64,000 nucleotides of DNA from Chiloscyllium plagiosum. Its lineage: Eukaryota. The stretch is from contig NC_057720.1 in the NCBI RefSeq assembly GCF_004010195.1, positions 43,399,736 through 43,463,735 of the forward strand. Direction: 5' to 3'. A model generated the notes under the pieces. It was not told where the DNA came from. It saw only the letters and a program-made list of their open reading frames with translations, and did no database searches. A program made the position numbers and the translations under genes. Shown one piece after another: positions 18,230-64,000 of this stretch (position 1 is its first letter; every line of letters starts with the position of its first letter).

Positions 18230-18670
18230 AGTTGGGTGCTGGAAAAGCGCAGAAGGTCAGGCAGCATCCGAGGAGCAGGAGAATCGACATTTCAGGCAAG
18301 AGCCCTTCATCAGGAATGAGATTTGTGAGCCGAAGGGGTGGAGAGATAAATGAGAGGCGTGGTAGGTGATGGGTCAGAGAGGAGGGTGGAGAGGATAGAT
18401 GCGAAGGAAGAATGACAGGTAGGACAGGTCATGAGGGCGGTGCCGCATTGGAAGGTTGGAATTGGGATAAGGTGGGGGAGGGGAAGTGAGGAAACTGGTG
18501 AAATTCACATCGATACCCTGGGGTTGGAGGGTCCCAAGGCAGAAGATGAGGCAGTCTTCCTCCAGGCATGGGGAGGTAAGGGAGTGGCGATGGAGGAGGA
18601 CCAGGACCCGCCATGTCCTTGGCTGAGTGGGAGAGGGAATGGTCTTTACAGGAGGAGGACAGCGGAGAGG
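18230..18670 (-). mobile_element. Penelope-like element 3' fragment (GIY-YIG C-terminus plus terminal repeat)
   Basis: Minus frame LEEDCLIFCLGTLQPQGIDVNFTSF matches the end of the Penelope endonuclease, followed by a C-rich UTR and the hammerhead-bearing repeat. Confidence 0.85.
18281..18317 (-). ncRNA. Minimal hammerhead ribozyme motif (CpG-decayed copy)
   Basis: ATTC-CTGATGA-A-GGGC-TCTT-GCCT-GAAA-TGTC-GATTC on the minus strand. Confidence 0.55.
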
Positions 18671-23100: not shown

Positions 23101-23235
23101 TTCTGAAGAAGAGTCACTAGACTTGAAACATTAACTCTGGATTCTCTCCACAGGTGCTGCCAGACCTCCTGACATTTTCCAGCAAATTCTTTTTGTGTTT
23201 CTGATTTCCAGCATCCATAGTTCTTTTGGTTTCAT
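23101..23235 (+). mobile_element. Penelope-like solo terminal repeat (second family) with a hammerhead-like core
   Basis: CTGAAGA-A-GAGTC-ACTA-GACTT-GAAA-CATT-AACTC followed by CTCTCCACAGGTGCTGCCAGACC...TTCCAGCATCC. Confidence 0.7.
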
Positions 23236-31580: not shown

Positions 31581-32257
31581 CATTGTTAAAAGATACAATT
31601 CACCATGAATCATTACAAAATAGAGATGACATGTCTCTTGACATATACTTCACAAAAAATTCACAAAATCAATCAGCTAATTTAATGTTATTAGCTACTT
31701 GCAATTGCACTATGGTTTCATATAAATTCCACTCATAGCTGAAGGGATATTGAAGCCATCTCTGTGTTTTTAATTAAAACTCAATGCCTAGTTCTTTGAG
31801 AAATCAGTGCAGATTGCAGCATAGCAGTTACATATTCACAATCACTCAAAAGGTGGTATCATACATTATTAAATGAACGTTTTGATGAAATATTGTAGAA
31901 ATTATGTGGGAGAAATTTGCAATCTCATTATCTTATTCATAACAAAATATGACAAATATAACAAAAAATTTAAGCGTGTGCTGTGGTCTGAATTTACTTA
32001 GGAAATATACTTGCATTTTATTGTAGTAGTTTTGAGTATTTTCAGTTCTTAAGGTTCACGATGGACTCTAGGTAATCCAACCCAGTTGATTCAACATGTA
32101 CCCCAGGAGCAGTCAGTAGAACTCAAAGTTGAAGTATTTAGAAGTTACAAAAGTTTTTAAAAGCAATATTCTGAACTGAAAATAGAGCCCAATCTATTGG
32201 TTTCATGTTTTAACCATTTTCCTAATCCCAGTTATAATCTCTCCCATCCCTATCTGT

Positions 32258-33061
32258 AAGGTAGAAGACAGGGTGGTGGTGGACGGTGGTTTTTCAGACT
32301 GGAGGCCTGTGACCAGTGGAGTGCCACAAGGGTCGGTGCTGGGCCCTCTACTTTTTGTCATTTACATAAATGATTTGGATGCGAACATAAGAGGTACAGT
32401 TAGTAAGTTTGCAGAAGACACCAAAATTGGAGGTGTAGTGGACAGCGAAGAGGATTACCTCAGATTGCAACAGGATCTTGACCAGATGGGCCAGTGGGCT
32501 GAGAAGTGGCAGATGGAGTTTAATTCAGATAAATGCGAGGTGCTGCATTTTGGGAAAGCAAATCTTAGCAGGACTTATACACTTAATGGTAAGGTCCTAG
32601 GGAGTGTTGCNNNNNNNNNNNNNNNNNNNNNNNNNNNNNNNNNNNNNNNNNNNNNNNNNNNNNNNNNNNNNNNNNNNNNNNNNNNNNNNNNNNNNNNNNN
32701 NNNNNNNNNNNNNNNNNNNNNNNNNNNNNNNNNNNNNNNNNNNNNNNNNNNNNNNNNNNNNNNNNNNNNNNNNNNNNNNNNNNNNNNNNNNNNNNNNNNN
32801 NNNNNNNNNNNNNNNNNNNNNNNNNNNNNNNNNNNNNNNNNNNNNNNNNNNNNNNNNNNNNNNNNNNTGCCAGAGGATGTGGTGGAGGCTGGTACAATTG
32901 TAACATTTAAGAGGCATCTGGATGGGTATATGAATAGGAAGGGTTGGAGGGATATGGGCCGGGTGCTGGCAGGTGGGACTAGATTGGGTTGGGATATCTG
33001 GTCGGCATGGACGGGTTGGACCGAAGGGTCTGTTTCCATGCTGTACATCTCTATGAGTCTA
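32258..33061 (+). mobile_element. Young CR1 (HER1-like) LINE, 5'-truncated, spanning an assembly gap
   Basis: SGVPQGSVLGPLLFVIYINDLD...KFAEDTK; tail GACCGAAGGGTCTGTTTCCATGCTGTACATCTCTATGA; near-identical to 48418-49429. Confidence 0.93.
32611..32867. other. Assembly gap (257 N)
   Basis: Run of N inside the CR1 copy. Confidence 1.
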
Positions 33062-33399
33062 TTAATTTTAAGTACTTGTTAAAAGCAGGTTTTTAAAATA
33101 TTTCCTCCTGAATTACTTTGATTCTAGTTTTAATCAATTGCTTGGTCATCCTTTACAGGTTTTTAAAATGTTTTGAATTCTCAGGGTTGCTACTCTCTGG
33201 CAAAACAGTAAACTGCACTCTTAAATTCAATAACGTTTTCACCACCTCTAGTTGTCTATAGCTGTTTTAAATTTTCTTTATTAATGGAGGTTTTATTCTT
33301 AAAGTATCTTCATGAAGATACATTAATTTAGAAAGAATGTTTGCGAGTTTTTGATTTATAGACATCATTTACTTCAGAGTTTAAATTTTGAACTGAATG

Positions 33400-35859: not shown

Positions 35860-36081
35860 TTGACGAGTGTGGTGCTGGAAAAGCACAGCTGGACAGGCAG
35901 CATCCAAGGACCAGGTGAATCAACGTTTTGAGCATAAGCTCTTTATCAGAAACTCCTGATGAAGAGCTTATAGTCCAAACATTGATTCTCCTACTCCTCA
36001 AATGCTCCCTGACCAGCTGTGTTTTACCAGCGCCACGTTCTTCGACTCCGATCTCCAGCATCTGCAGTCCTCACTTTCTCC
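35860..36081. mobile_element. Penelope-like inverted terminal repeat pair with two decayed hammerhead motifs
   Basis: ~90-bp arms mirror each other around 35950. Degenerate TSD CTATTTTTAGGTGAG (35845-35859) / CTATTTTTGCATGAG (36082-36096). Confidence 0.85.
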
Positions 36082-42696: not shown

Positions 42697-42780
42697 TCAT
42701 TCCTTTGCTTCCAGGAAGAGTGTTTCCTGAGGATAGAGTTTCACCTCCATTAATGTTTCAGTTGGATCAAACTGAGATAC
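42697..42780 (-). CDS. faf1: FAS-associated factor 1, terminal coding exon (end of the UBX domain)
   Basis: Pyrimidine tract and acceptor TTTCTTTCCAACAG| then VSQFDPTETLMEVKLYPQETLFLEAKE-TGA; the human FAF1 C-terminus is VTQLDPNKSLLEVKLFPQETLFLEAKE. Same strand and upstream of dmrta2, as in human. Confidence 0.93.
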   Translation of the reverse strand, partial: VSQFDPTETLMEVKLYPQETLFLEAKE

Positions 42781-44814
42781 CTGTTGGAAAGAAAAAGAGT
42801 ACATTAGACAGTAGTTCAGTATAAAAATTCTAATTTTGACACGTTGACATTTAATTAGCTTACTGTTTCACTGGCAGAAAAGTGGATTAAACAATAGTTG
42901 TCCTCATTTTCCCCACACAGTAGACTTGATACCTTTTAATAAGAAACATGTGGAAGAACAAACTGTTCATTGCTCGTTTAACCTGGAATCTAAAGATCTT
43001 TGCATTTAGTCAGTTCTCTTCTTTGTTACATACACTTCATCTTGGACCATTTTAGCTCTATTAGAAACATTGTCCTCTCCTGAACATCGAACTCTGTTGC
43101 CAACATGACCTGAATCTTGGACACAGGAGCTTAGGTCTTCCATTAAAGTGGAACTGGGGCATGATTTCAGTATAGCAGGACCTCTTTTTATTTTTCTACC
43201 TTGGTTTAATTAATCTTTGTAAACTTCTTGGCATCCATGCTGAGTTCATGTAGAAGGGAGGGTAGCAAATATCTAAGAGAGAAACTTTGGAGGCCAGTTC
43301 CTACCAGTAGCTTCAATAATGCGATGATAAGGTGTACAATAAATATTTAGCTTTACCAAATTTAGCATCAAACGCTATGCAATTATTTTTTAATATCATT
43401 ATCCACAGAAATGGTAATCCCATGAAAACAAGAATTAGGAGGAGGAGTAATCCCTTGAAGCTACTCACCATTCAAAAAGGCTCTGACTGACCTAACTTTG
43501 GCACAGATCGCCAGCAGTCAGTTATGGCATCTGTAATCAGTGGGTAAGAACTGAGGTCTCTATCTCAGATTATGGAAATATTCAGGATAACAATTGGCTC
43601 TATTTATGTTGCTTCACAATACAACTGCTTTACATAGCCAACATATTATACTTCATCACATATACCCATCAGAAAATCCAAGAAAGAGCAAGGATGAGTG
43701 AAAAGTTGCCAGATAAAACTTCTGCTATACTTCCTATCTTCCTTTCTTCCACTGAAAATGTGCACAAAGAGGGCAGACGGTCCTCATTGGAATAATTACT
43801 GACAATAGAAGTCAAAAATAGTACAGGCATGGGAGAAATAAATATTCGTCATGCAAAAATGTATAGTGTGAAGATATACATGAACAAATCTGTCATTTTT
43901 CAGAGTTCAATTTTATATGATTATCCTTCACAGTATATTAGTAGAGATCAGAAAAAGAATAATTACGTTTGTGACATTCTATTAAGAATTCACATTCAAG
44001 TCTATAAAGTTGTAAAAGAATCATCTGTTAAGTAACAAATGAAAGTAACATTTAAACACTGCTTCACAACAACTAGAGCATAGTGCCCTTCCAGGAACTA
44101 TTGTGCAAGTGCAGTGAGGTGGTAACAAGGTCATTGTGGTTCATTAGAAGAAAAATTCCTGCAATTCAGCATTCAAACAGGTGGGATGTTGAAAGTATTA
44201 ATTTATGCTGAAAAGTATGAATAATCACCATTCACAATCTGTTCAAGTAATTAAATACTTTTCAACTGTAATCAATAATGTTAAGGCTTATTTTTTAAAC
44301 TACATTTAATTCAAAATTTTAGTAGTTTGGACAAAGCACCTACAATGCCAAATTCTCATTTTAGTCAGCTGGTTGACTAGTTTATAAAAGATGGAGTTTG
44401 TAAGAACACAATATAACTAAAAAAAGAGAAAAGTGTTTGTAATGGTATGAACTTTAAAAAGAAACAATGGCCTCAATTTACACCTGTTACTCATATCAAA
44501 CTTTTAACACTTTTGAGAGATCATGTGATATAAAAGTTAGCTATCACACTGGAAAACAAAGTTTAAAAATGATTGTGCACCTCTGTTAATTGCGATGAGG
44601 CAGTACACACTGACACTTCATGCTACCAGCTCATTTCAGTGATTTTAGCTTTCAGCTAGCACCAACCACATTGACTGTGGGGCTTATTAGGAGCAAGGTA
44701 TCATAAGTAGCTAGCACCATTTCATACTAGACTGCACCTCAAAGGAGAGGTGCACTAAGGTAGTAAATACTCACAGGTGTGAAGGTAATAGCTTTCATTT
44801 GGGGAATGCAAAAA

Positions 44815-45020
44815 TATGGCAAAACATGGAGGAATCAGAGTTCCTAGATCTTTAAGGCTTCAATGCAAGGCCTGCTGCAAGGATTTAGAGGCCACCAAGA
44901 AAAGCACATAAAGGACGATGACAGCAGATAGTTACGGAGGTCAATGTCAGAAGTCTAGCTCCAAGATCCTGACCAAATACTGTAATTTGTTCAAAGATCT
45001 AACAAACGTTTAAGGTCAGT
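44815..45020 (+). mobile_element. Harbinger-type Myb/SANT ORF remnant (tentative)
   Basis: MAKHGGIRVPR...EVNVRSLAPRS*...FKDL then AAGGTCAGT, resembling the Harbinger DNA-binding ORF helix pattern. Confidence 0.45.
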
Positions 45021-45089
45021 GATTTTCAAATGTTTTTTTTTTAAATCAACTGTGTTAACTGAACTAAGACACTGCACGATTCATCATAC

Positions 45090-45820
45090 CCAGTGTGGCT
45101 GGACTAGTAATCTAGAGACCCAGATAATGCTTTCAGGACCTGCATTTGAATTCCAATCTGAATTTTTTAAAAAAGGTGGAATTAAAAGCTTAATAATGGT
45201 TACGAAACCATTACTGTTTGTTCTAAAAACCCATCTAGTTCACTCCTGTCTTTTAGGAAAGGAAAACGATCATTATTACCTCATCTGGTCTTCATGCAAT
45301 CCTAGGTCTACAACAATGTAGGTGAGTTTCAACTGCCCTCTGAAATGACCAAAATACTCAGTTGTATCGAGCCAGTAAAAAGTTTCAGAAAAAAAGGAAC
45401 TGGACAGACCACTTGGCATTGATGTAGGCACCAAAACGATAATGGCAAATCTCAGGCTCCTCCTGATATCCCCAGCAGATCGCATGTCAGTTTTCAGTCA
45501 ATTCGATTCATACCAAGTTGAGATAAAGAAATGGCTGATGACATTGGATACTGCAATACTATGCATTCTGACAACATTCCAGCAATAGTATTGAAGACTA
45601 GTTATGGAGAATTTTGCATGCTCCAAGCCAAGCTGTTCCAGTACAGCGACAGCACTGGCATCTACCCAACATTATGGAAAATTGCCCAGGAATGTACTGT
45701 GCACAAAAAAGGCACTAAATCCAACCTGGCCAATAACATCAGTCTGTCTTGATCATCAACAGAGTGATATAAGGGGTCATCAATAGTACTATCAAGCAGC
45801 AGTTGCTTAGCAATAATTTG
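45090..45820 (+). mobile_element. Internally deleted LINE with tRNA-like head and RT N-terminal region
   Basis: Head shared with 40005, then KLFQYSDSTGIYPTLWKIAQECTVHKKGTKSNLAN (RT domain 0/1). Confidence 0.75.
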
Positions 45821-45929
45821 AGTTTTACATGGGCTGTGGAGTAGGACGTTACAGTTGGTGCTCATCTGCTCTTTCTGTTTATTTCCCATTTTCTTCTTTA
45901 TTTATCCTCCTTGTTCTCCCCTGAGGTAG

Positions 45930-46735
45930 GCTGGAGGCATTGAGCAGAGTGCTCTGGAGGCCCAAGGGGCGGGAACAGCCAGTGGGCTGGAGGCCTGAGC
46001 AGAGTGGGGATGGCTAGTGGGCTGGAGTGTCACATGGAGGGAGGATGGCTAGCAGGTTGGAAGCCCGAGCACAGTGGGGATGGCCAGAGGGCTGGAGACC
46101 AGAGTAGAGTGGACATGGCCAGTGGGCTGGAGGCTCACAGCGAGCGGGGACAAGCAGCACGCTGGAGGCTCACAGGGAGCGGAGATGGCCTGTGGGCTGG
46201 AGAGCGGAGCAGGGTCAGCCAGTGGGCTGGAGGTCTGAGCAGAGTGGGGAGCGGAGCAGGGTTGGCTAGCAGGCTAGAGGCTCACGGGGAGGGAGGATGA
46301 CAAGCATGCTGGAGGCCCGAGCAGAGCAGGGATGGCCAGCAGGCTGGAGGCCTGATCGGAGTGCAGAGCGAAGCAGCGGGCTGGAGAGCGGATCAGGGTC
46401 AGCCAACAGGCTGGAGCCTCACAGGGAGTGGGGATGGCCAGTGGTCTGGAGGCCTGAGCAGAGTTTGGAGCAGAGCAGGGTCGGCCAGCAGGCTCACAGG
46501 GAGGGAGGATGACCAGCATGCTGGAGGCCCGAGCAGGGCAGGGTCGGCCAGCGGGCTGGAGGCTCACAGTGAGGGAGGATGACCAGCGGGCTGGAGAACT
46601 GAGGGGAGTGTGATGGCCAGCAGGCTGGAGGCCTGAGCGGAGTGGAGGCGGCTAGCGGGCTGGAGGCCTGAGCGGAGCAGGGTTGGCCAGTGGGCTGGAA
46701 GCTCACAGTGAGGGAAGATGACCAGCAGGCAGAAG
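45930..46735. repeat. GC-rich complex minisatellite built on GCTGGAGG
   Basis: Roughly 30-35 bp variant units of the form GGCCAG(C/T)GGGCTGGAGGC(CTGAGC/TCACAG)... Confidence 0.85.
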
Positions 46736-47175
46736 GCATGAGTGATATGGGACAGATATTGGACTGGGGATCAGTGCAGCAGGAGAAGGGCCACTTGCAA
46801 ACCTGCAATTTACTCAAATAAATTGAGTTTTCCTGAATATCTCCCTCTGTTTCCTGATTTATTGCTCTGTCTAGGATGTTACTTCTATCCTTTATAGTGA
46901 AGATTGATGCAAAATATCTGTTGAATTAATCTATCATCTCTATTTTCCATTATCAATTCTCCAGATTCACTTTCTATAGAACCAAAATCCACTTAGTTAA
47001 CTTGTTTCATTTTAAAATACTTGTAGAAACATTTTACTATTTGTTATTATATTTTTGGCTAGAATTCTTTTGTAATCTTAATCATTTCCTCCATATTAAT
47101 GTTTAATTATTTGCTGGTCATTTACATTCTTACAACTCTCCTGGTGTCACCTGTGTTTGTAGAATTATAGATTCT

Positions 47176-49429
47176 TTCTTCTGATTCAGTATGTGGATGT
47201 ACCTACTAGAGAAGTTGCAAACCTTGACCTACTCTTGGGAAATAAGTCAGGGCAGGTGACTGAGGTGTCTGTGTGGGAGCGCTTTGGGGCCAGTGACCAT
47301 AATTCTATTAGATTTAAAATAATGGTGGAAAAGGATAGACCAGATCTAAAAGTTGAAGTTCTAAACTGGCGAAAGGCCAATTTTAACGGTATTAGGCAAG
47401 AACTTTCGAAAGCTGATCGGGGGCAGATGTCCGCAAGTAAAGGGACGGCTGGAAAATGGGAAGCCTTCAGAAATGAGATATCGGGAATCCAGCGAAAGTA
47501 TATTCCTGTTAGGGTGAAAGGAAAGGCTGGTAGGTATAGGGAATACTGGATGACTAAAGAAATTGAGGGTTTGGTTAAGAAAAAGAAGGAAGCATATGTA
47601 AGGTATAGACAGGATATATTTAAAAGGGAAATCAGGAGGGCAAAAAGGGGACATGAGATAGCTTTGGCAAATAGAATTAAGGAGAATCCAAAGAGTTTTT
47701 ACAAATACATTAAGGACAAAAGGGTAACTAGGGAGAGAATAGGGCCCCTCAAAAATCATCAAGCCGGCCTTTGTGTGGAGCCGCAGAAAATGGGGGAGAT
47801 ACTAAATGAGCATTTTGCATCAGTATTTACTGTGGAAAAGGATACGGAAGATATAGGCTGTAGGGAAATAGATGGTGACATCTTACAGAGGAAGAAGTGC
47901 TGGATGTCTTGAAACGCATAAAGGTGGATAAATCCCCAGGATCTGATCAGGTGTACCCTACAACTCTGTGGGAAGCTAGAGAAGTGATTGCTGGGCCTCT
48001 TGCTGAAATATTTGTATCATCAATAGTCACAGGTGAGGTGCTAGAAGACTGGAGGTTGGCTAACGTAGTGCCACTGCTTGAACAAGGTGGTAAGGACAAT
48101 CTGGGAACTATAAACCAGTGAGCCTGATGTCAGTGGTAGGCAAGTCGTTGGAGGGAATCCAATCATGTATTATGAAAGGCAAGGACTGATTAGGGATAGT
48201 CAACATGGCTTTGTGCGTTGGAAATCATGTCTCACACACTTGATTGAGTTTTTTGAGGAAGTAACAAAGAGGATTGATGAGGGCAGAGCGGTAGATGTGA
48301 TTTATGTGGACTTCAGTAAGACGTTCGACAAGGTTTCCCATGGGAGACTGATTAGCAAGGTTAGATCTCATGGAACACTGGGAGAACTAGCCATTTGGAT
48401 ACAGAACTGGCTCAAAAGTAGAAGACAGAGGGTGGTGGTGGAGGATTGTTTTTCAGACTGGAGGCCTGTGACCAGTGGAGTGCTACAAGGATCGGTGCTG
48501 GGCCCTCTACTTTTTGTCATTTACATAAATGGTTTGGATGCGAGCATAAGAGGTACAGTTAGTAAGTTTGCAGATGACACCAAAATTGGAGGTGTAGTGG
48601 ACAGCGAAGAGGGTTACCTAGATTACAACAGGATCTTGACCAGATGGGCCAATGGGCAAATGGAGTTTAATTCAGATAAATGCGAGGTGCTGCAATTTGG
48701 GAAAGCAAATCTTAGCAGGACTTATACACTTAATGGTAAGGTCCTAGGGAGAGTTGCTGAACAAAGAGACCGTGGAAAGTTGCATGTAGATAGGATAGTG
48801 AAGGAGACATTTGGTATGCTTTTGTTTATTGGTCAGCGTATTGAATACAGGAGTTGGGATGTCATGTTGCAGCTGTACAGGACATTGGCTAAGCCACTGT
48901 TGGAATATCGCATGTAATTCTGGTCTCCTTCCTATCGGAAAGATGTTGTGAAACTTGAAAGGGTTCAGAAAAGATTTACAAGGATGTTGCCAGGGTAGGA
49001 GGATTTGAGCTATAGGGAGAGGCTGAACAGGCTGGGGCTATTTTCCCTTGAGTGTCGGAGGCTGAGAGGTTTACAAAATTATGAGGGGCATGGATACGGT
49101 AAATAGACAAAGTCTTTTCCCTGGGGTTGGAGAGTCCAGAACTAGAGGACATAGGATTCGGGTAAGAGGGGAAAGATATAAAAGACCTACGGGGCAACAT
49201 TTTCACACAGAGGGTGGTAAGTGTATGGAATGAGCTGCCAGAGGAAGTGGTGGAGCTGGTACAATTGCAACATTTAAGAGGCATTTAGATGGGTATATGA
49301 ATAAGAAGGGTTTGGAGGGATATGGGCTGGGTGCTGGCACGTGGGCCTAGATTGGGTTGGGATATCTGGTCGGCATGGACAGGTTGGACCGAAGGGTCTG
49401 TTTCCATGCTGTACATCTCTATGACTCTA
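47176..49429 (+). mobile_element. Young CR1 (HER1-like) LINE, 5'-truncated, ORF2 frameshifted
   Basis: LDLLLGN...SDHNSI, QHGF, DFSKTFDKV, GVLQGSVLGPLLF and FADD; intact 3' tail. Confidence 0.95.
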
Positions 49430-50055
49430 AGTCTGGTACAATTTTTAACTTTTCTAGTTAACCATGGATGGTAGGTCCAATCTCTTGAAAAATACTGTGC
49501 ATTCTGAAAGTTATAAGTTTGCCACTGTATCTGTATTCCTGTATTTTAATCTCATTTGTTTAATCATTCTGCATTCATGCCCGCATAACTGCATTTATTT
49601 AAGTTGAAAAAAGATGTCGGACCCATTCCCCTCTCCCTCAATCTGATTGTGAAATTCAATCATACTATGATTGTTGCCACGTAGGGGTGCCTTCATTGTT
49701 AGATCATTCATTATTCCATTGCACAATACCAAATCTAGTCTGCTCTCTTGTTCAAAACATGCTGTTATAAGAAATTATCCCAAAATAATTCTATGAAGTC
49801 CTCATCTAGACTACCTTTGGCCATCTGACTTTGGCACTGTCTATACCTATATTTAAATTTCCAATTATTATTGCTGTGTTTTCTTGAAAAGTTCCCATTA
49901 TTTCTTACTTTACGGTCCATGCACTAAAGATGCATCAGCCTATAGGGTACCCTGGAACTGTCTGAGAAGAAGGGAAATGAGCTGTTCTTTTACCTGCCAG
50001 TACCATCTCTGTTCTTGAAAGGCTTATGCCAGCCATCACTGTGGGAAATAAACAT

Positions 50056-50361
50056 GGGCGGCACGGTGGCACAGTGGTTAGCACTGCTGCCTCATAGCGC
50101 CAGAGACCCGGGTTCAATTCCCGCCTCAGGCGACTAACTGTGTGGAGTTTGCATGTTCTCCCCATGTCTGCGTGGGTTTCCTCCGGGTGCTCTGGTTTCC
50201 TCCCACAGTCCAAAGATGTGCAGCTCAGGTGAATTGGCCATGCTAAATTGCCCGTAGTGTTAGGTAAGGGGTAAACGTAAGGTGGGTTGCACTTCGGCGG
50301 GTCGGTGTGGACTTGTTGGGCCAAAGGGCCTGTTTCCACACTGTAAGTAATCTAATCTAAT
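50056..50361 (+). mobile_element. HE1-type V-SINE, full length
   Basis: GGGCGGCACGGTGGCACAGTGG (A box), GGTTCAATTCC (B box), V-domain, CR1-like tail and TAATCTAATCTAA end. Confidence 0.94.
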
Positions 50362-51723
50362 AAAAAGTAGGTACCTATGCAGATTGCTAATTTCAGCAAC
50401 AAAGATGTTTACTTCTATCCAAGATTTCACATAGGTGTCTTTACACCTACCCTTGATTCCATCTGTGGACGAACTGCAAGAGACACCTCTAACCTCATTT
50501 TAAGGATGGACATTGGCAAGTTGGATGAGACCTAGAAGAGGTTGCTGATTCCCATTCTCACCAGGTGTGTGCGTGATTTATATAAATCAATATCAATTTT
50601 AAACTAGCGTCACATAGATGTTAGTCTACTTATGTGAAGGGGTTTAATAAATAATAAGGTCAGTCTTTTCAGCACCATGATTTTAAACCAGTATGTGCCA
50701 TACAGCAGATAACTGAAAGCTTCTTGAAATATTAATGTAAGTTTTTTTAAAATATATTAAAGGGATTTATAAGAAGGAATAGAAATCATCAAAAGACATA
50801 AGCTTGTTTCTGGTTTAGAATAATCAAGGAATGACTTTAGTTGAGAAAAACCAAGAGATTGAAAAGACTTTGGGCAGTTCAAAGACCACCTGAATGGATG
50901 TCAGATATCAGTACAGTATCTCTCCTAGAAAAGGAGATTATTCAGAGTAGTTAAGGAAATTGGTTACCCCAGTGAAATAATTTAGTTTCTGAAAATTCCA
51001 GACCAGGAATATTTGGTTAGAATTTGGTTATTCAAAGCTGAGAAAGTCTTAAGATCTCAGTTAAGTGAGGATTCAAGGGAAAGATGTTAATGCTCACAGG
51101 ATAGGAATTACCACTGGTACCTTCAGGCACATGAAAGCTTTTGGTGACCTGTATTTTCAGTCTCTCCTTATGTATCTACATAATATATTCATTTACAACT
51201 TGACATTTGAAGAGACTCTTGAAAGACGAGACATCGTCTTAGCTTGCTTGTTGCAGTTTAATATGAAAGTTAAACCAGAAAAGTGCCAACTTTCCCAGAC
51301 AAAAGTGTAGTACCTTGGGCACTTTGTTACAAAAGGAAGGAGTTACTCCTGACAAGAGAAAATCTGAGCAGTGGGGGAGTGTCCCTAACCTAAGACAGGG
51401 AGGGTACTGCATGGGTTCTTTGGTCTCGATGGATACTCGAGGCTATGACATTTGGCCGCTCCACTCCATGATTTGCTGAAGAAATTGGAAAATTCTGAAG
51501 GACTGGTTGGGGAAGGATATATGAGGCACACAAAATGTCAGAGTTGGACCCCAGCATGAAGAATCCTTTTGGGTGCTCAAGCAAAAACTTGTCTCATAAC
51601 TTGTCCTTGACCACAAAAATTTCCATCTCCATCTCATATTAGGAAGCAATACCTGCTTTCTTGGATTAGAAGTGTTGCGGTCAGAGATCCAAAAGCAGGA
51701 AAATGGTTATTGCTTATACCAGA

Positions 51724-51820
51724 GCTGAAAATGTGTTGCTGGAAAAGCGCAGCAGGTCAGGCAGCATCCAAGGAACAAGAGAATCGACGTTTCGGGCATA
51801 AGCCCTTCTTCAGGAATCTT
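51724..51820 (-). mobile_element. Penelope-like solo terminal repeat inserted into the Gypsy RNase H region
   Basis: Flanked by TTGCTTATACCAGA (51710-51723) and TTGCTATACCAGA (51821-51833); CpGs intact, so a young insertion. Confidence 0.88.
51781..51818 (-). ncRNA. Minimal type I hammerhead ribozyme motif, apparently intact
   Basis: GATTC-CTGAAGA-A-GGGC-TTAT-GCCC-GAAA-CGTC-GATTC: core CUGANGA, perfect 4-bp stem II, GAAA, palindromic ACGU in place of stem III, GUC triplet. Confidence 0.72.
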
Positions 51821-54800
51821 TTGCTATACCAGACAGGGTCAGAAGCCAAACAAGACAAAAATGGAGAATTACTCCAGTATGAACTGCTAGCTTTGATGTT
51901 GGCTATTTCACAAACGTTCAGAGACACTCTGGTGCAGAGTTTGAAGCATTTACAGACAACAACCCATCAGTTACTTTCAAATGTTCAAACATCTTGTAAC
52001 AACAGAATAGCCAGTGAACTCAGTCAGTTTCAATTCCAGATCTGGTACCAGTCAGGCAAAAGTAATGCAAATGCTGATGCCCTCAGTTGAAAGATGGGCA
52101 CAGGAGGGAAATCACCTCTACCGAGCTGAAGGGGGTCGATGGCTGATGCCTTGTCCCAAGTCAAAGGCAAAGTTTTGACCTTGATTCCCCATGACATTTT
52201 GCCTGAGATTCAGCACAGTGTCACCAATGGACCTAAGAATAAAATCCAGTCAAGTAGAGTCAGGTTTGGTTTCATTTTTGCAACTACCTTGAAACATGAC
52301 CTCAGACAGCTTCAACTGCACTAGTACTGGAAGACCCAATATCCACCAACCCAGTGCTGGCTGATGAAGAGGTCCAAACAGGCATAGAAAATGTTGAGGT
52401 GATGAATGGAGGAGGATGAAGTCATCAACTGCTTCATGACAGGGAAAGAGGGGTGAAGCAACACATCCTTCCTGATAGCCTCAAGGTCACGTGATCGTAA
52501 TAGTTCAAAATCAAGCATGACATCAAACGGTGCAAAACATAATTGCTCTGATCAGAAAGCAGTGTTACTGTCCCTGGATACTTATTAATATTGATGACTA
52601 CTGTCAAGTCTGTGAAAGGTATAATTTGGTGAAAGTGACCTCACTGCAGCATGGGATTCCAGGTCACCAAGAGACCTCTAGTGGTCCTTGCAATAGCTTT
52701 TATGGTCCTTGACTCCAGCAGTAATCAGACTGAGCATGTTCCCATAGTTAATGCAGGCCATTCTCACTTGTGGCCGTAAGTTCTCAACTATAATCAATGT
52801 GCCAGCACATGATTTGTTTATCTGTTCTGGTGTTCCATATCAGACTTTCAGTGAGCAGGAGTTCAAATGAACTTTGGAAGGCCTGTAGCATTGTTAAGAG
52901 TTGCATTACCCTCTATCATCCATAGGATACAGACAGTGCTAACAATTCAAACCAAACTCTACATGAGCATCTGAGAGAAAACAAAAGTGGTCCTAGTACC
53001 TTCTGGAATTGGTTTATGCTTAAAATAGCATCCCACTTATCTGCAGACTATTTTCCACACACTCTGTCCTCAATCCTTACCGTGGATGATCTCCTTGGGC
53101 TCACCACACTTTCTGAAGATGATGTCTGGTCAATGCATGGGCAGCATCACATGATACTAAACCAGGCATTTGTGATGATGCCCAAGAGGACGGAGAGAGA
53201 AGCACTGAGAAGAAAAACATGAAATGGTCTCAAGGATATAGACTGACCTTTCAACTGAGGCAAGAATTTTACAGAATCAGAATATCAGGGGTCAGAAATA
53301 GGAGACAGGATCCTGAACCCTGTAGAGTCATCAAGTGGCTGGACATAATTGGTCACACCTATGTTGCTGAACTAATAGTTGGAGGGCAGCCTCATAAAAT
53401 GGTTCATGGAAAGAAGCAACTTGAGGCCATAATCTGGTGGATTATGTGGAGACAAGAAGCTCACTCAGAGGTGTTGCAGAATGTGAAGTGTTGGATCTTA
53501 TTGGCTCAAGTGAAAGTCGAATTGGATAATGGTAAGGAACTCTTTAACGACTTGTGTATTGTGACACCATGAGGCACATCCACATTAGAGAGGCCTTATC
53601 TCACCCTGGCCAACAGCACAGGGATAACCTGTTGGAGTGGAAACTGCACCTAACCTATGATTCCTGGACATCTGACTGGCCTCGACTTCAATATGGGCAA
53701 TCATCCACAGAGCCTGGATCCCTTGGAAAATACCAGTACAGATGAGAGGCTGAGAAGGTCCTTGAGGAAATGCTGGATATCACCTCAACCTTCATCATTT
53801 ATTCAGATTGATGATGCAAAAATAGAATGCTGCTACTGATGTGGACATGTAGATTCTAGCCATCATGGCACAACTGAACCCTGCTTTATGAGCTTTGAAC
53901 CTTCCATGTGTTCAAATCCCTTGCTGCAGTATTAACACCTTTCTCTTTTGTATTGTCTCCACTCTTTGATTTATCACATCTTCCCAAATTTGATCTCTTG
54001 ACCCCACTGTTCAATTTAAATTCCTCTCTACTTCTTTAGTTATGTGGCTCACAAGAACACTAGCCCAAGTACAGTTCAGGTGGAGAGTGGAACCTGTACA
54101 ATCAGGGCACTTTCCCTGATTCTGGTACAACTGCCACATGAATCAGAGCTCACTTCTCCCAAATCAGTCTTTAAGGCATGCATTCATCCCTCTAATTTGA
54201 TTTGCCCTATACCAATTTGCACATGGATCAGGAAAGAATCCAAAGACTCTGAGCTTGAGGTTCTGCTTCTTAATTTGGTGCCTAGATTCTCATACTGAAT
54301 ATGCAGAACCTCTTTCTTTGTTCTGTCAATGACATTTGTACCTACATGGACCATAATGACAGGATTCTCCCCCACTCACTGCAAGTTCATTGCAGCTGAG
54401 GAGATGTTTTGATCCCTGGAACTGCACAGACAACACTACCCCCTCAGGACTTATATTTTTTGATGCAATGAACGGTGTCCATTCCTCATCTACTGCTATG
54501 TTTTTTTTGTTCTCCCCTCTATGACTCTATTTGAATAATTTTGTGTAGAGTAGTCAGTCCACTCTGTAGCCCTCACCCTTATTCAAACAAGCTTGAAGAA
54601 CCTTGAACCTGTCAAATAACTGTAAACGTTAGGACTCCTATGGCTCCTGAGCTATTGATTTCTTAACCAGTCTCAGTTGCAGTCACACTAATGACTGAAT
54701 GCAGTCCTTTAACAAATCAGAAGACCCTATTATAAGAGGTGTGATTATCTCTTGATACAAAGATTCCAAATAACTTTCCCTCTGCCTGAGGTATTGCAAT

Positions 54801-55259
54801 GTCTGTAGTTCAGCCTACAGTTCACACTAGCTGAGCAAAAGCTGCATAAACCTCAAATGCTTACAGCAGAATTGTTTGACCTCGATCACAGGGGCATTTT
54901 GGAGCTCTCAGATGCTACAGCTTAATCAACTTTATGTAACTGCTTAATTATTTTATTCAATTTTTTACTTTTATAATATTTCAATAATTTTATCAGTAAA
55001 TGCTACACAATTAGGAATGGATTCCACCTTAGACAATTAACAGATAGTTATCAAATAGCTAGCTAGTTCTCATGTACTACAATAAGAACTAATTCTTGGG
55101 GGCTGTAAAGTTATAAAAACCCAAAACAAAGGAGCACTTCTTTTCTGTCCTTTCTAACTCCCTTAATCATCAACATTCAGCACTCTATAATAAGTTGAAG
55201 TGCAAAATTGCACAAAATTGGCTAGTTTATATGTTCCTAACACAAAAGGCCTAGCTGCC

Positions 55260-57303
55260 CAATAGACAATAGGTGCAGGAGTAGGTCATTCGGCCCTTTG
55301 AGCCGGCACCACCATTTATTATGATCATGGCTGATCATCCACAATCAGTTTCCTGTTCCTGCCTTATCCCCATAACTCTGATTCCACTATCTTTAAGAGC
55401 TCTATCCATCTCTTTCTTGAAAGTATCCAGAGACTTGGCCTCCACTGCCTTCTGGGGCAGAGCATTCCATATATCCACCACTCTCTGGGTGAAGAAGTTC
55501 CTCATCAATGCTGTTCTAAATGGCCTACCCCTTATTTTTAAACTGTGTCCTCTGGTTCTGGACTCACCCATCAGCAGAAACATGCTTCCTACCTCCAGAG
55601 TGTCCAATCCTTTAATAATTTTATACATCTCAATCAGACTCCCTCTCATCTTTCTAAACTCAAGTGTATACATGCCCAGTCGCTCCAATCTTTCAACATA
55701 TTATAGTCCTGCCATTCTGGAAATTGACCTAGTGAACCTACGCTGCACTCCCTCAATAGCCAGAATGTCCTTCCTCAAAAGCCAGAATGTCCTTCCTCAA
55801 ATTTGGAGACCAAAACTGCACACAATACTCCAGGTGCAGTCTCACCAGGGCCCTGTACAGCTGCAGAAGGACTTATTTGCTCCTATGCTCAATTCCTCTT
55901 GTTATGAAGGCCAGCATGCCATTAGCTTTCTTCACTGCCTACTGTACCTACATGCTTGTTTTCATTGACTGTTGTACAAGAACAGCTCGATCTCGTTGTA
56001 CTTCCCCTTAACTTAGCTCCATTTAGATAGTAATCTGCCTGCCTGTTCTTGCCACACACTTATCCACATTAAACTGCATTTGCCATGCATCTGTCCACTC
56101 ACCTAGCCTGTTTAAGTCACCCTGTATTCTCATAACATCCTCCTCACATTTCACCCTGCCACCCAGCTTTATGTCATCAGCAAATTTGCTAATATTACTT
56201 TTAAAGCCTTCATCTATATCATTAATGTATATTGTAAACAGCTGCGGTCCCAGCACCGAACATTGTGGTACCCCACTGGTCACCGCCTGCCATTCTGTAA
56301 GGAACCCGTCTATCACTACTCTTTGCTTCCTGTAAGTCAGCCAAGTTTCAATCCAAGTCCGTATATTGCCCCCAGTACCATGTGCCCTAGTTTTGCTCAC
56401 TAATCTCCTCTGTGGACTTTCAGGAAGCCTTTGATAAAGTCCAAGTACACTACATCCACTGGCTCTCTCTTGTCCATCTTCATAGTTACATCCTCAAAGA
56501 AATTCCAGAAGATTAGTCAAGCATAATTTCCCCTTCGTAAATCCATGTTGACTCTGACCTATCCTGTTACAGCTATCCAGATAAGTCATAATTTCATCGT
56601 TTATAATTGACTCCAACATCTTTCCCACCACTGACGTCAGGTTAACCAGTCTATAATTCTCTGTTTTCTCTTTCTCCCTCCCTTCTTGAAAAGTGGGACA
56701 TTAGACACCCTCCAATCCACAGGAACGGATCCTGAATCTTTAGAACATTAGAAAATGATTACCAATGCGCCCATGATTTCTAGAGCCATCTCCTTAAGCA
56801 CCCTGGGATGTAGACCATCAGGTTCCAGGGACTTATCAGCCTTCAGACCTAACAGTCTATCCAACACCATTTCCTGCCTAATATAAATTCCCTTCAGTTC
56901 ATCCATTACCCTAGATCCTTCAGCCACTATTACATCTGGGAGATTGCTTGTGTCTTCCCCAGTGAAGACAGATCCAAAGTACCTATTCAACTCTTCTGCC
57001 ATTTCCTTGTTCCCCATAATAAATTCACCCGTTTCAGTCTTAAAAGACCCAATTTTAGTCTTAACCATTTTTTTTCTTTTCACATACCTAAAAAATCTTT
57101 TACTATCCACCTTTATATTTTTGGCCTGTTTGCCTGCGTACCGCATTTTATTCTCCACATATTACCTTTTTAGTTATCCTCTATTGTTTTTTTAAAAGTT
57201 TCCCAGTCCTCCGGCTTCTCGTTCATCTTTGCTATGTTATACTTCTTCTCTTTTATCTTTATATAGTCCTTAACTTCCCTCGTCAGCCATGGCTGCCCCT
57301 GCC
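55260..57303 (-). mobile_element. CR1 LINE, 5'-truncated (different subfamily from 47176)
   Basis: SGVPQCSVLGPQLFTIYIND, KFADD, FFTQRVVDIWNALPQ; tail ending CTATTGTCTATTG on minus. Confidence 0.95.
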
Positions 57304-57849
57304 CAGCACATAGAAGATCCATTTCACCTGCTTCATTATATAACTAAGCCCAATCACTCTTCCACTGAAGACTTTGTTAAGACTGTTTAAAGCTGACAAC
57401 TTTAGAATTTAAACTGTACATTTCAAAACAAAATTAGCTATGTATGACAGATCTTGCCTTCGTCTCGAGGTCTTGCTGACTCCATGGTGTCCTCCTCTTA
57501 ACTTTTTCCTCTAGAAGATGGTGCAGTTCTGCAGCATGAAGCAGAACACCATGAATCTTGACACAGGCACTAAACACTCCAGTAACGTTCCCTTTACTTT
57601 TTCCACTGGACATCCTCACCAATTATTTGCTCCTTATCCCCCTTTATCAACAATGTAAAATAAATTCCCAGCAATTTCAGTTGTAAAAATGAGTCACTAA
57701 ACTTGAAATGTTATCTGTTTTTCTCTCTCTCTCTCTCCAGAGATGCCAAATTTATGTAGTACTTTGTTTCTTTTTCAGATCTTCAGTACTTCGCTTTTAT
57801 ATTATTACACAAGTTCATTATATTGGTGTCCTATATCCAACCATCTTCA

Positions 57850-58700
57850 GCTGCTTCATCCTCACAACGTTCAGCATATTTGCGAATCCTCAGATACTGA
57901 AGCAACCTCTTTTCATATACAACATCTGGTCTACATCCAAGCACGATCTGATGATTGGTAAGTAACATTCACCCCATTCAACTTCCAGGCAATGACCATC
58001 TCGATCAGGGCAGAATCCAACCATTTCTCCAGAATCTTAATAGCAAGATCATCTCTGAATCCCCCATTACTAACATTCTGAGATTACCACTGATCAAAAA
58101 CTGAACTGTACGGGCCATATAAGAACAGTGGAGAAAAGAGCATGAGGCCAGGAAGTTTGCAGTGACTAACTTACCTCCTGACTCCACAGTATCCATCTAC
58201 CATCTACAATGCACAATCCAGGAATATGATTGAATGTTCTCCACGTGTCTGGATGGATGCATCTCCAATAACACCATCCAGAAACAAAGTATCCCGTTCA
58301 ACCCACACCCCATCTACGATCTTCATCTTTGATGTACAGTGGCAGCAGTGTGTTCTATCCACAAGATGTACTGCATAACTCACTATGGCTCCTTAACAGC
58401 AAACCTGTGACATTTACTATCTATAAGGACAAGAGCAGCAGATGCATGGGAACACCAACACCTGCAAGCTCCCCTCCAAGTCACATAGCCTCCTGACTTG
58501 GAACTGTAGCACTGATCCTTCACTGGTGCTGAATCAAAATCCTGGAACTCTCTTCCTAATAGCACTCTGGGTGTACCTATGCCCCCAGGGCAGCAGCAGC
58601 AGCAGTTCAAGATTGCAGATCAACATGACCTTCCCAGGGCAACTTCAGATCTCAATAGATGCTGGCCTACCCAGCAATACCCACATTTCAAAAACAAATA
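57850..58700 (+). mobile_element. 3' part of the tRNA-headed LINE family
   Basis: Aligns by eye with 22760-22950 and 23810-24382; ends ATGCTGGCCTACCCAGCAATACCCACATT...AAATAATAAA. Confidence 0.7.
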
Positions 58701-59340
58701 ATAAAGGGTGTACTGACAGGATCAACTCTACTTATCACCAGTCTCTCTCTCTATATTGTTAAGTTATTAGACTGCTTATGTGACATCCAGTATTCGATAA
58801 ACAGAAATGTATACAAATTAAATACTAGGAAAACTGTAGCTTTTTTACTCCACTACTTCAAACTCCATTTTGTAACAAATGATTCTCTCTCCAAGTAAAC
58901 CACACTGTTTTAACCTTGATATCATATTTGAACTTGAGATGAGCTTCTGATCATGTATTCCACGATCACAAAGAGAGCCTACTTTTACCTCCTGCAGTTA
59001 CCTGACTTTATCCCTGTCTCAGTTCATCACCCATTGAAACTTTCATTGGTTTGAACCTTGAACTTGCCTACTCCAGTACAGTTCTGGCTCCTCTCCCACA
59101 TGCATGCTTTGTAAACTTGAGGTCATCCAAAACCTCTGCCCATGTCTTAATTTGCAATCAATTCCATTCACATACCATCTTTGAGTAGTAACCTATATTA
59201 ACTACTGGTCAATCAACACCTTAATTTTAAAATTCTCATTCTTATTTTCAAATCTCTCCAGAGCATTGCCCCTCTCTATTTCTGTAATTTCCTGCAACCT
59301 TCTGAGATATTTGAGGTCATCTAATTCTAGCTTTCTGAGC

Positions 59341-60121
59341 ACAAAGGGCAGGACAGTTGATGTTTCAGGCATAAGCACTTCATCAGGAATGTGGAGGGGG
59401 AAGGGGGCTGACAGATAAATAAGGGGTGGGGTGGGACAGGGAAAGATAGATGGAATGGTGATAGGTGGATGCAGGTAGGAGGTGACTGTGATAGGTTGGT
59501 TAGGAGGGAGGAGCGGATAGATGGGTAAGAAGATGGACAGGTAGGTCAGGTCAGGAGGGCAATGCTAAGTTGGATCTGAGATGAAGTGGTGGGTGGGGAG
59601 ATTTGGAAACTGGTGAAATCAATGATGATGCCATGTGGTTGTAGGGTCCTGAGGCAGAAGGTGACATGCTCTTTCTCCAGTCAGTAGGTGCCTTTGATTT
59701 GGCAGTGGAGACAGGGAGTTGAAGTGGTTGGCTACAGGGCTGTGGGGTTGGTTGGACCAGAGATATTCCCTCAACCTCTCCATGAGTTGGCGCTCGGTCT
59801 CCCCAGTGTAGAGGAGGCCACATTGAGGGCAATGGATGCTGTAAATGAGGATCTATCTGTCCATCTTCCTCCCCACCTATCCGCCCCACCCTCCCCACCG
59901 ACCTATCAGAATCACCTACCTGCTTCCACCTACTGTCATCCCACCTACCTTTCCCCCTATTTATCTCTCGGTCCCCTTGCCCCTCCACATTCCTGATGAA
60001 GGGCTTATGCCTGAAATGTAGAATCTCCTGCTCCTCAGATGCTGCCTGACCTGCTGTGCTTTTTCCAGCACTACACTTTTCAACTGGACTCTCTCGCACC
60101 TGCAGTGCTCACTTTCACCTG
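59341..60121. mobile_element. Penelope-like insertion with inverted structure and GIY-YIG remnant
   Basis: Minus frame LIYSIHCPQCGLLYTGETERQLMERLREYL (~59850-59760) is the GIY-YIG motif. ~190-bp inverted arms; exact 11-bp TSD GCTTTCTGAGC at 59330-59340 and 60122-60132. Confidence 0.92.
59989..60024 (+). ncRNA. Minimal hammerhead ribozyme motif
   Basis: ATTC-CTGATGA-A-GGGC-TTAT-GCCT-GAAA-TGTA-GAAT: 4-bp stem I (ATTC/GAAT) and a GUA triplet. Confidence 0.6.
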
Positions 60122-60469
60122 GCTTTCTGAGCTTCCCTGACTTTAAACACTTGCCCACGCGTGGATGTGACTTCAGTAGCCTAGGCCCTAAATTTTGGAT
60201 TCCCTGCCTGAATCTCTTCACCTCTCCACCTAATTTTCCTCCTTTAAGTAATTCCTTGATAACACTTTGATCTAACTTTTGTTCTTCTGATCTACCACTT
60301 CCTTATGTGGTTTAGTGTCACATTTGTTTTTTTATTACTCTGACAATGTTGCATTACATTAACGCTTCTACATACATAGTAGTTATTGCTGTTGATGCAA
60401 TTACAATCATGCTCTGATTAGATCATGTCTAAGTGGACAGAAAGGGGCTGTCTAGAGTGCTACAGGCCT

Positions 60470-61440
60470 GGCTTTATCTAATTTGTGTCCCCCTTATGAT
60501 TCTGTTCATCAGTTGCTCACAGTATAGCAGATGTGTAAGTATTATCCCCTTCAGGTTGGTGTAGTTCTGTAGCATGAGGCAAAACATGAATCTTGACACC
60601 AACTCAAAGGACTCCAGGGGTCCTCCAGAACAATCCAGGCAGGAGAAACAATGTTTCAGGATACCAGTCTTGATCAATCTTTGTGCACAAGGACATGAGT
60701 TGTGCACGATCCGCCATGTTATTATTGGATTACACACTCTTTAGTTTACTGTGGTGGCTCAAGGATGACTAGAGACAAGCATTAATGCTGGCCAGCCTGC
60801 GAAGCCAACGTTCCACAAGAGAATGAATAAATAAATAAAGTTTTAATAACTGCTTCAGGTTACTGGGCATTGCCCTGCATCGTCTTTTGCTACTGATTAC
60901 ACACAGTCTGGGTATGGAATTCTTTTCAGTTTTGACATGGGCATGGTTAAAATCCAGCACCAGTCAAGAGACATGCGTGCAAGCAATGATACCTTACGTC
61001 ATAGGGAAATGTAATATGTTCAATCCACCTGGCAAGAGAATAAAACAGATCTTTTTACTGAATAAGCAACCTTGTGAACCAGTGAACAGAAAGATGCAAG
61101 ATGTTATGAACAGCTAGATAGATTAGTTCATTGGCATGGTCACCTTCAAGAGCATTTGACAAGGTTGTCTTTGCCTTGCTCTGAAGTAGCAGTTGTGGCT
61201 GCAGTAGGCAGAAGATTCCAGTGATAATATCTTTACTGAGGCAGAGACATCTCACACTTTATTTATTACATGCTGAGATTAAGGTGAAGAAATGTTTGTT
61301 TGTAGCCCTAGCCGATGTGGCCTCTCACTGCTCTTCAACCTATTCCTCATCTCCCTTTTCCAGCAGCTTGGTTTGTTCCGCATGGTCTCTCCTGACTGTC
61401 CAAGTCATAATATATTTCAAGGACAATGTCTGCTTGTACA
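60470..61440 (-). mobile_element. PIF/Harbinger (HARBI1-like) transposase remnant, interrupted by a LINE tail (60765-60840)
   Basis: Collinear broken motifs RCLCLSKDIITGIFCLLQPQL...KVT, FPMT*GIIACTHV (cf. FPxVxGAIDCTHV) and GILKHCFSCLDCSGGPL (cf. GxLKxRFRCLDxSGGxL). A related C-terminal scrap lies at ~57500-57590. Confidence 0.75.
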
Positions 61441-61569
61441 CAAATCAAAACATCAAAATAGGGCAGGAAAACTTGAAAGTCAAAATCTCAAAGCTACAAA
61501 AATACAAATGGTCAAAAACTGTGCGCTTTAAAAGCATTACACAATCAATTTTCCAAATTACTCCGATTT

Positions 61570-62478
61570 GTGTCAAAGATTGTGGAGTGGCAGAAAGCAT
61601 AAGGGACTGTCAGAGAATACAGGAAGATATACATAGCCTGCGAGTTGGGCGGAAAAGTGGCAGATGGCTTTCAATCCAGACAAATGCGAGGTGATGCATT
61701 TAGGCAAGTCGAATTCTAAGGTGAATTATACAATGAACGGAAGAGCCTTGGGAAAAGTTGATGGGCAGAGAGATCTGGGAGTGCAGGTCCATTGTACCCT
61801 CTAGGTTGCTGCACAGGTGGAGTGGTCAAGAAGGCATATAGTATGCTTGCCTTCATTGGACGGAGTATTGAGTACAAGAGCTAGCAAGTCATCTTAAAAT
61901 TGTCCAAGACATTGGTTCGGCCGCATTTAGAATACTGTGCACAGTTTTGGTCGCCACAATATCAAAAGAATGTGGACGCTTTGGAGAGGGTGCAGAGAAG
62001 GTTTACGAGGATGTTGCCTGGTATGGAAGGTGCTAGCTATGAAGAGAGGTTGAGTAGGTTAGGTTTATTTTCACTAGAAAAAAAAAGGAGATTGAGGGGG
62101 GACCTGATTGAGATTTACAAAATCATGAAGGGTACAGACCGGGTGGATAGAGACAAGTTTTTCCCAGGGTGAAGGATTCAATAATGAGAAGTCATGCTTT
62201 CAAAGTGAGAGGTGGAAAGTTTAAGGGGGATACACGCGGTAAGTACTTCACACAGAGGGTAGTGGGCGTTTGGAACGCGTTGGCAGCAGAGGTGGTAGAG
62301 GCAGGTACAGTAGGTTAATTTAAGATGCATCTGGACAGATGCATGAGTAGGTGGGGAGCAGAGGGATACAGATGCTTAGGAATTGACCGACAGTTTTAGA
62401 CAGTACATTTGGATCAGCTCAGGCTTGGAGGGCCGAAGGGCTTGTTCCTGGGCCATAAATTTTCTTTGTTCTCTTTGT
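61570..62478 (+). mobile_element. CR1 3' fragment
   Basis: KTLVRPHLEYCAQFWSPQYQKNVDALERVQRRFTRMLPG; tail GGGCCGAAGGGCTTGTTCC...TTCTTTGTTCT. Confidence 0.93.
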
Positions 62479-62958
62479 CAAACTTCTCATCTAATATCCA
62501 TCATCAGATGATAAGAAATTACCTGAAATCAATCTTGGAGAAAATCAGTGTCATTGGTAGAGACTGAAGACAAATTCATTCCTGAGCCAGCAACTCTACT
62601 TCTCTGCCTAGTCATTGTCTAAACTGAACCAGATCATTGGTGACCTAACTGACCCTGAACTGTGCTTCTGACCCCATATCCTCATCATAACTATATGCAT
62701 TTATCTCCCTAATACTATTCACCTCATCCCATCAGCTGCTGAAACTCGGATCTGTCTTTATTACTTCTTAAGTTTATAATCCCAATGGTCAATTTCCCTT
62801 GATAAACTTGAATTCATCTAATGTTCTGCATCTCATATCCTAACTCCAGGCTTGCTTCCCAATCAGCCATTTTTGCTGACCTACATTGACAATGCCTTAA
62901 TTTTAACGATTACATTACTGTTTAAAATGCCTCTGTGACTTTGCCTCTTCCTATCTCT

Positions 62959-63959
62959 TGTGATGGAAGGTGTGTGAAAAACATTATCATGTTTAGTATT
63001 TAAATTGTTTTTGTAAAAAAATGAATGGATGTCAGTTAGTGTTGCAGAAGAGTTTTCAAAAGGCCAGAAATTCATTCTGGAACAGTGAGCTAAATGTACC
63101 AGTTGAAGAAAACACCTGATTGTCAATAAGGGTTTGGGAGAACCCTCAAGTCAGAACCTCTGGAATGTTAACAGATTAACGTTTTTATGCAGTGTAAATG
63201 TTTGAAGTAATTAACCTTGTATTGAATTCAGTTCAAAAAACATCAAAGTTTTATTTGGGAAGAATAAAGAGTGGAGTTCAGAAGAAAGTTTTAGTTTCTT
63301 TATGAGCAGATTTTGGTTCAGAAGTAACCAGTCACTGCAACAGCAGTGTTTTTCTATTTATGATGTTTCCAAGCAAAGAGAAATTGGGACTGAAATTTTA
63401 AGATTGTTAAGAGTGGAAAAACACCAGGCCATCAGAATTATGAAAAATTGATACCATCATAAAGTTCTCTCTTTTGCTCAAGAGAAAGAAACTGAAAGGA
63501 ATCAGTTAATTAGAAGCTTAAAGAGTTGAAATAGGAGTATAAATTCTCTGGGCACGAGTCTCTGTAATGAATAGTGTTTGGAAACAAGTTGATACTTTAT
63601 TTTAATGTTTATATTAAGATCTTTCTAACTCTTAAAATATATAACTTGATTCTGAGGAAGGGTCATCAAACCCCAAACGTTAACTTTGATTTCTCTTCAC
63701 CGATGCTGCCAAATCTGCTAAGTTTTTCCACCAACGTTTGTTTTCGTTTCTTGATTTACAGCATCCACAGTTCTTTTGGTTTTTATTGCTCGATTTGTTT
63801 GTGTAATAACAAATACTTGTTAGAAAGTACCTGCAGTCTCATGTGAATATATTTCAGTGACCAACCACCATATTAATGATAAAAAAAACACATGATGAAT
63901 CAAGCCAGATTTCATTCTTAGATTTGACTTGTCCAGTAGTACCAGCAAGGACCATAACA
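62959..63959 (+). mobile_element. Solo LTR with 4-bp target-site duplication
   Basis: TGTGATGG...CCATAACA termini (7/8 inverted match), CTCT on both sides; removing it restores an L2-type sequence CCTATCTCTGCAATC. Confidence 0.8.
63650..63787 (+). mobile_element. Penelope-like solo terminal repeat (second family) inside the solo LTR
   Basis: CTGAGGA-A-GGGTC-ATCA-AACCC-CAAA-CGTT-AAC...GATGCTGCC...CAGCATCCACAGTTCTTTTGG; same family as 23101. Confidence 0.75.
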
Positions 63960-64000
63960 CTCTGCAATCCTGACCCCCTTGTGTATCCTCTATCCGCCCT

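Follow-up and report, generated by a model that had tools for sequence, protein, structure and literature searches.

A complete minimal-hammerhead motif in the last intron of faf1 in Chiloscyllium plagiosum is, with high probability, part of a 99-bp solo insertion of a Penelope-like element (PLE). Its core recurs identically about 35,000 times in the genome, and the copy probably has no effect on the faf1 pre-mRNA. The window analysed is a stretch of 64,000 nt (NCBI RefSeq assembly GCF_004010195.1, contig NC_057720.1, forward-strand positions 43,399,736 to 43,463,735), and positions below are those of the window unless they are given in extended numbering. Papers cited by PMC or bioRxiv number are drawn on in part, and statements resting on them hold for those parts.

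The original prediction had described an apparently intact minimal hammerhead here, and the minus strand from 51819 to 51780 does read as it was written, with all core bases present. The type I motif (51780..51819, minus strand), delimited by sequence reading and a structural descriptor, comprises the 5' strand of stem I (51819-51814), the core CUGAAGA (51813-51807, with C3 at 51813), an unpaired A (51806), stem II (51805-51794), GAAA (51793-51790), a palindrome completed to U16.1 at 51787, and C17 at 51786, with cleavage predicted between 51786 and 51785. The four of four pairs in stem II and the palindrome ACGU were both confirmed in this copy. Stem I has the five of six pairs claimed for it, but pairs 5 and 6 (G51818 and A51819) are foreign to the native element, in which stem I consists of three pairs and a U.U mismatch; the 5/6 is thus partly accidental, since these two bases come from the insertion junction and the flank. 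Once more host flank is counted, stem I of the faf1-intron copy reaches 8/10 pairs, and this longer stem (against 3/4 in the native repeat) would favour a dimer if a partner were present. The structural descriptor found two sites in the window (51813 on the minus and 59993 on the plus strand), compared with a mean of 0.03 and a maximum of 1 in 200 dinucleotide shuffles of the window. Rfam gave no hammerhead match in the window at E<=10. The 44-nt monomer fold was without unusual stability (z -1.18).

The insertion that carries the motif (51720..51818, minus strand) consists of the pLTR end and a short tail of a PLE of the UUAU-loop subfamily. Its homology to the element begins at A51817, and the preceding G51818 is non-native. 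It is flanked by an imperfect target-site duplication of about 15 bp, the upstream copy of which (51819..51833, minus strand) happens to supply the bases for pair 6 and for the outer pairs of stem I, while the downstream copy (51708..51723, minus strand), with one indel and one mismatch, overlaps the 3' end of the element by 4 nt. A natural sister copy matches the insertion at 98% over 98 nt, on which ground we call the insertion young. The tail is shared at least partly by all 30 sampled copies, ending mostly ~60-66 or ~98 nt past the cut; shared element body beyond the tail was seen in 5/30 long-tail copies, and head-to-head inverted pairs are common among the copies.

The assignment of the motif to the Penelope-type, minimal, dimer-type hammerheads is supported by its sequence features and by the element context. 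A copy of the same subfamily with a longer 5' part (L078) reads into the C-terminus of a GIY-YIG domain (E 2e-25), and a sister subfamily sits downstream of RT and GIY-YIG ORF pieces, whose Pfam scores lie below the curated cut-offs and whose homologues carry RVT_1 and GIY-YIG. Two of these pieces (L174, L181) contain a CX4CX2C linker, which agrees, for the linker only, with the linker (CX2-5CxxC) that separates the RT from a C-terminal GIY-YIG in the Neptune clade. No full-length intact element of the UUAU subfamily was found in 10 candidate stretches from 151 protein matches. Both the inverted head-to-head arrangement and the occurrence of two tail lengths have been described for PLEs (PMC8557442), and the structural features of the family are those of PLEs (PMC8557442, PMC3846280).

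The intactness of this copy is not special: with N7 left free, the exact 28-nt core has 34,833 matches genome-wide (0 in the control), and the copy is young. The descriptor matched 202 times in 1.26 Mb of pattern-selected, overlapping stretches, which do not amount to a census, and the matches fall into at least four families. Conservation of the core and covariation of the stems, on which the original prediction had staked the structure, were borne out across families. In a pair table anchored on the core (8 natural copies from 4 families), pair 2.1-1.1 varies as C-G, U-A or A-U across the four families, the inner pairs of stem II vary among families, and the palindrome is ACGU or AGCU depending on the family. 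Because stems I and II and the palindrome covary, we infer that the structure was under selection in the master elements.

Several of these families can be characterised further. Family 2, with a 5-bp stem II and a perfect 4-bp stem I, has 219 exact cores genome-wide and is represented in the window by decayed copies at 23063-23228 and 63649-63778 (both on the plus strand). The third min-HHR family combines the AGCU palindrome with a GUA triplet and a stem II of 5 bp (L120:2612-2660 on the minus strand, L205, L212, L222 and L258), and in a fourth, min-HHR-like family stem II is longer and the unpaired base is U (L250:340-393 on the plus strand, L026, L151, L155 and L243). There is also a subfamily with U-A instead of U.U in stem I, and therefore a perfect 4-bp stem I (L194:9720-9767 on the minus strand, with five similar copies in 478 kb), which is a better candidate for assays than the native UUAU subfamily.

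The placement of the motif, in sense orientation in the last intron of faf1, holds, as exon positions, splice sites and the minus strand agree. The last coding exon (42697..42780, minus strand), with the end of the UBX domain and the stop, lies behind a canonical AG and is 100% identical to shark FAF1, the nearest proteins being from carpet sharks. Beyond the window, on the minus strand at 73819-73604 in extended numbering, comes the penultimate exon, with a GT donor. The last intron, of 30.8 kb on the minus strand, occupies 42781..64000 of the window and reaches 73603 in extended numbering, and the gene spans ~42,700-457,200 (extended numbering). Sense orientation does not distinguish the copy either: among 102 copies in 414 kb of faf1 introns 50 are sense and 52 antisense, and the intact ones comprise 6 sense and 4 antisense, a test of 10 copies in one gene with which moderate depletion is still compatible. 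The next intact sense copy lies 137.7 kb upstream, in another faf1 intron.

These observations bear on the idea that the motif has been domesticated as an intronic ribozyme and controls the splicing of faf1 or the formation of its 3' end, like the conserved intronic hammerheads of amniotes. Its sense orientation, intactness and position in the last intron would suit such a role, for which domesticated cases are known (PMC6155905), but we consider it highly improbable, given a young copy with a visible target duplication in a family of 35,000 members, the presence in the same gene of five more intact sense and four intact antisense copies, and the lack of a monomer-competent stem III (only 2 nt lie between A15.1 and U16.1).

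Head-to-head inverted copies were observed at 35868-36081 of the window and at 189383-189618 and 199780-199999 in extended numbering; within faf1 introns such inverted copies would give pre-mRNA hairpins of ~100 bp, possible substrates for editing. Outside faf1, the window contains a decayed 3' end of a PLE with a hammerhead relic (18237-18880, minus strand), upstream of a DM-domain gene of two exons (4377-6981, minus strand; Pfam DM) that we take to be dmrta2 because of its synteny with faf1. RT-like ORF relics at 32186-33082, 47163-48917 and 55335-57161 presumably resemble CR1-type LINEs, and an assembly gap of 257 N is located at 32611-32867.

Since stem III is reduced to the palindrome, cutting requires a partner copy. 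The partner that had been proposed, a second sense copy at ~59355-59390, exists as a decayed copy (59349-59395, minus strand) but is predicted to be unable to form an active dimer: its stem II, palindrome and 3' strand of stem I are broken, the palindrome reading ACAU and stem I not matching that of the faf1-intron copy. It is preceded by the relic of a Penelope-like ORF, the end of its GIY-YIG endonuclease (59664..59849, minus strand; tblastn E 3.6e-9), and an antisense copy with a long tail (59984..60119, plus strand) is inverted relative to this 59349-59849 piece. In nearest-neighbour estimates, made without tertiary contacts, the active heterodimer with the decayed copy is predicted at +9.6 to +12.1 kcal/mol versus -19.7 to -21.5 kcal/mol for the homodimer, which itself gains nothing over two separately folded monomers (2 x -11.3 = -22.6 kcal/mol). 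Cleavage of the last intron by these two copies, dimerised in cis on the same pre-mRNA, therefore deserves hardly any weight: both are sense and in the same intron, and the partner retains CUGAUGA and GAAA, but they lie 7.6 kb apart, the partner keeps only 3/4 pairs in stem II, 3/4 in the palindrome and 3-4/6 in stem I, and the active heterodimer is energetically unfavourable. With no competent partner on the same strand for 137 kb, splicing of the intron likely proceeds without a cut.

Partners may also be supplied in trans. In one sample of poly(A) RNA, 240 reads of the family were found, on both strands and continuous across the predicted cut, with no pile-up of read ends there; no read of this sample falls on the unique flanks of the faf1-intron copy, so that the reads speak for the family and not for this locus, and a second RNA run contained no family reads. 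Family RNA is present in cells, so that trans partners exist, and when the element is expressed (e.g., in the germline) the faf1-intron copy might cut a small fraction of the pre-mRNA together with family RNA, possibly chaperoned by protein, an effect that would be accidental and unselected. Neither its core nor its palindrome has a defect, its stem I is lengthened by junction and flank, a heterodimer with the native repeat is predicted at -15.1 kcal/mol in the same nearest-neighbour terms, and protein-assisted cleavage has been shown for an anole PLE (PMC11167929). We nevertheless consider trans cutting unlikely, because two RNAs would have to meet and be held together by helices of 4 bp, the reads do not end preferentially at the cut, sense copies are not depleted in faf1, and other folds are of greater stability (MFE dimer -25.7). 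For the min-HHR class, no cleavage of monomers and low cleavage of dimers have been reported (PMC4209133), and the anole ribozyme requires the element protein, the main template being uncut RNA (PMC11167929).

The ends of the insertions may provide a record of the RNAs that were copied. Relative to C3, 30 tail-selected copies start at -9..-1 (16 copies), at +1..+10 (8), at +20..+23 (2) or far upstream (4), and none starts at the cut; in an unselected 478 kb, the starts of 37 of the 75 copies lie at -10..+2 and those of 4 close to the cut. Initiator promoters inside the element are known from PLEs (PMC2377424, PMC3846280). Upstream of the core, native copies read TCATTC in the UUAU-loop family and TCAGTT in family 2, and both sequences presumably match the initiator consensus. 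Among exact copies, the start A is preceded by C 14,275 times, by G 3,230 times and by A or T 2,129 times; for G this is a 4.8-fold excess over the 679 expected from the background. Family 2, counted by eye, has G in 62 of 100 first purine cases versus a background of 38%, and at the internal cut position (also by eye) G is found in 37/100, without excess. An extra G at 5' junctions is a mark of cap copying in LINEs. That the G is a subfamily allele was ruled out, as homology is lost at -4 in 29 of the 30 G-start copies. A general preference of junctions for G did not show up at internal junctions. The G also lies within the duplicated target in 8 of 11 non-inverted G-start copies; this may reflect annealing of a cap-derived C to the target but also fits a preference for such targets, so that a cap origin of the G is a candidate explanation.

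A purine precedes the cut in 497 of 48,490 tail copies, and 16 of 30 that were checked are real junctions, which leaves ~265; the control position 4 nt downstream of the cut gave 278 copies, 17/30 of them real (~158). A fossil signature of cleavage was rejected, because the excess at the cut is only 1.7-fold and several cases are explained by microhomology in inverted arms. About 1% of the tail copies start at the cut, and from this scarcity it follows that nearly all copied RNAs were uncut, in agreement with the anole element (PMC11167929). Taken together, the starts at the 5' edge of the ribozyme, the excess of G and the lack of starts at the cut among the 30 copies suggest that the solo copies are likely run-off cDNAs of uncut, capped RNA. 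On balance, we lean towards the view that the hammerhead of shark PLEs is located at the capped 5' end of the RNA. In two divergent families the initiator would then also serve as the 5' strand of stem I, and the solo copies of ~100-130 bp, tens of thousands in number, would be tail-to-cap run-off cDNAs of uncut RNA.

The steps would be as follows. The element RNA likely begins ~4 nt ahead of the catalytic core, at the initiator-like TCATTC, and the reverse transcriptase of the element is probably primed internally at the tail, ~95 nt downstream; internal tail priming has been shown for the anole element (PMC11167929). The uncut RNA would then be copied up to its capped 5' end and the short cDNA presumably integrated at a staggered nick. 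Cutting would need two copies that pair via ACGU, likely aided by the element protein; two-copy pairing is documented for the min-HHR class (PMC4209133) and is predicted here.

The single locus in faf1 matters little, and the value lies in the family. Its ~35,000 intact cores allow a well-powered test of whether dimer-type hammerheads harm host pre-mRNAs, and the ends of the insertions bear on the open question of the role of PLE hammerheads in transposition. Nearly all-uncut templates would extend the in vitro result for one lizard element to the natural record, and if the start-site reading is true, the genome holds a fossil record, at nucleotide resolution, of the start site, of cap copying and of the silence of the ribozyme.

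Our literature search returned nothing specific on shark PLE hammerheads or on the start-site and cap reading, and Lünse et al. 2017 may catalogue the former. Conserved amniote intronic hammerheads are single-copy and have a full stem III. The identity of the faf1-intron motif with a domesticated hammerhead of this kind was rejected, as it lacks a monomer-competent helix III. Both are sense motifs in an intron of a vertebrate gene, but the amniote ones (RECK and others; PMC6155905) are conserved across lineages, whereas the shark copy is young and belongs to a huge repeat family. With animal non-LTR retrozymes (bioRxiv 10.64898/2026.07.22.740005; PMC7229834), which have been reported in one chondrichthyan (bioRxiv 10.64898/2026.07.22.740005), the insertion shares its non-autonomous, hammerhead-bearing and pLTR-derived nature. 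Retrozymes, however, are arranged in tandem, head to tail, with a mean unit of 363 bp in the chondrichthyan, whereas the faf1-intron copy is a monomer of 99 bp that has no other copy on its strand within 7.5 kb, and an identity as a tandem retrozyme was rejected for lack of head-to-tail units.

Compared with PAc Poseidon of the green anole (Frangieh et al. 2024, PMC11167929), the shark elements have the hammerhead at the same pLTR-ORF junction, and both show two 3' ends that define the tail, an uncut template and no RNA ends at the cut site. The CX4CX2C linker of the shark ORF relics, described for Neptune/Nematis (PMC8557442), differs from the anole Poseidon element, and the part of PMC11167929 that is covered here does not report, for PAc, that genomic 5' ends gather at the edge of the ribozyme together with an extra G. 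The closest match is the min-HHR class of PLEs (Cervera & de la Peña 2014; PMC4209133), the covered main text and supplement of which name no shark, although the rest of the supplement or the bioRxiv tables may list them. The mostly solo copies from truncated elements are common to both, and helix II is 4 bp in the shark copy versus 6-8 bp in the class. The 34,833 copies of a single exact shark core exceed the totals reported for Xenopus (~9,000) and the coelacanth (~4,000). Judged by sequence, the faf1-intron motif has all features of the class: the core C3UGANGA9, G12AAA15.1 and U16.1H17; a G10.1-C11.1 pair in helix II, with one unpaired base between 9 and 10.1; a palindromic 15.2-16.2 in place of helix III (ACGU here and AGCU in family 3); a short helix I (three pairs and U.U in the native repeat, 5/6 in this copy); and the same location in the pLTR, the terminal repeat of an element with RT and GIY-YIG.
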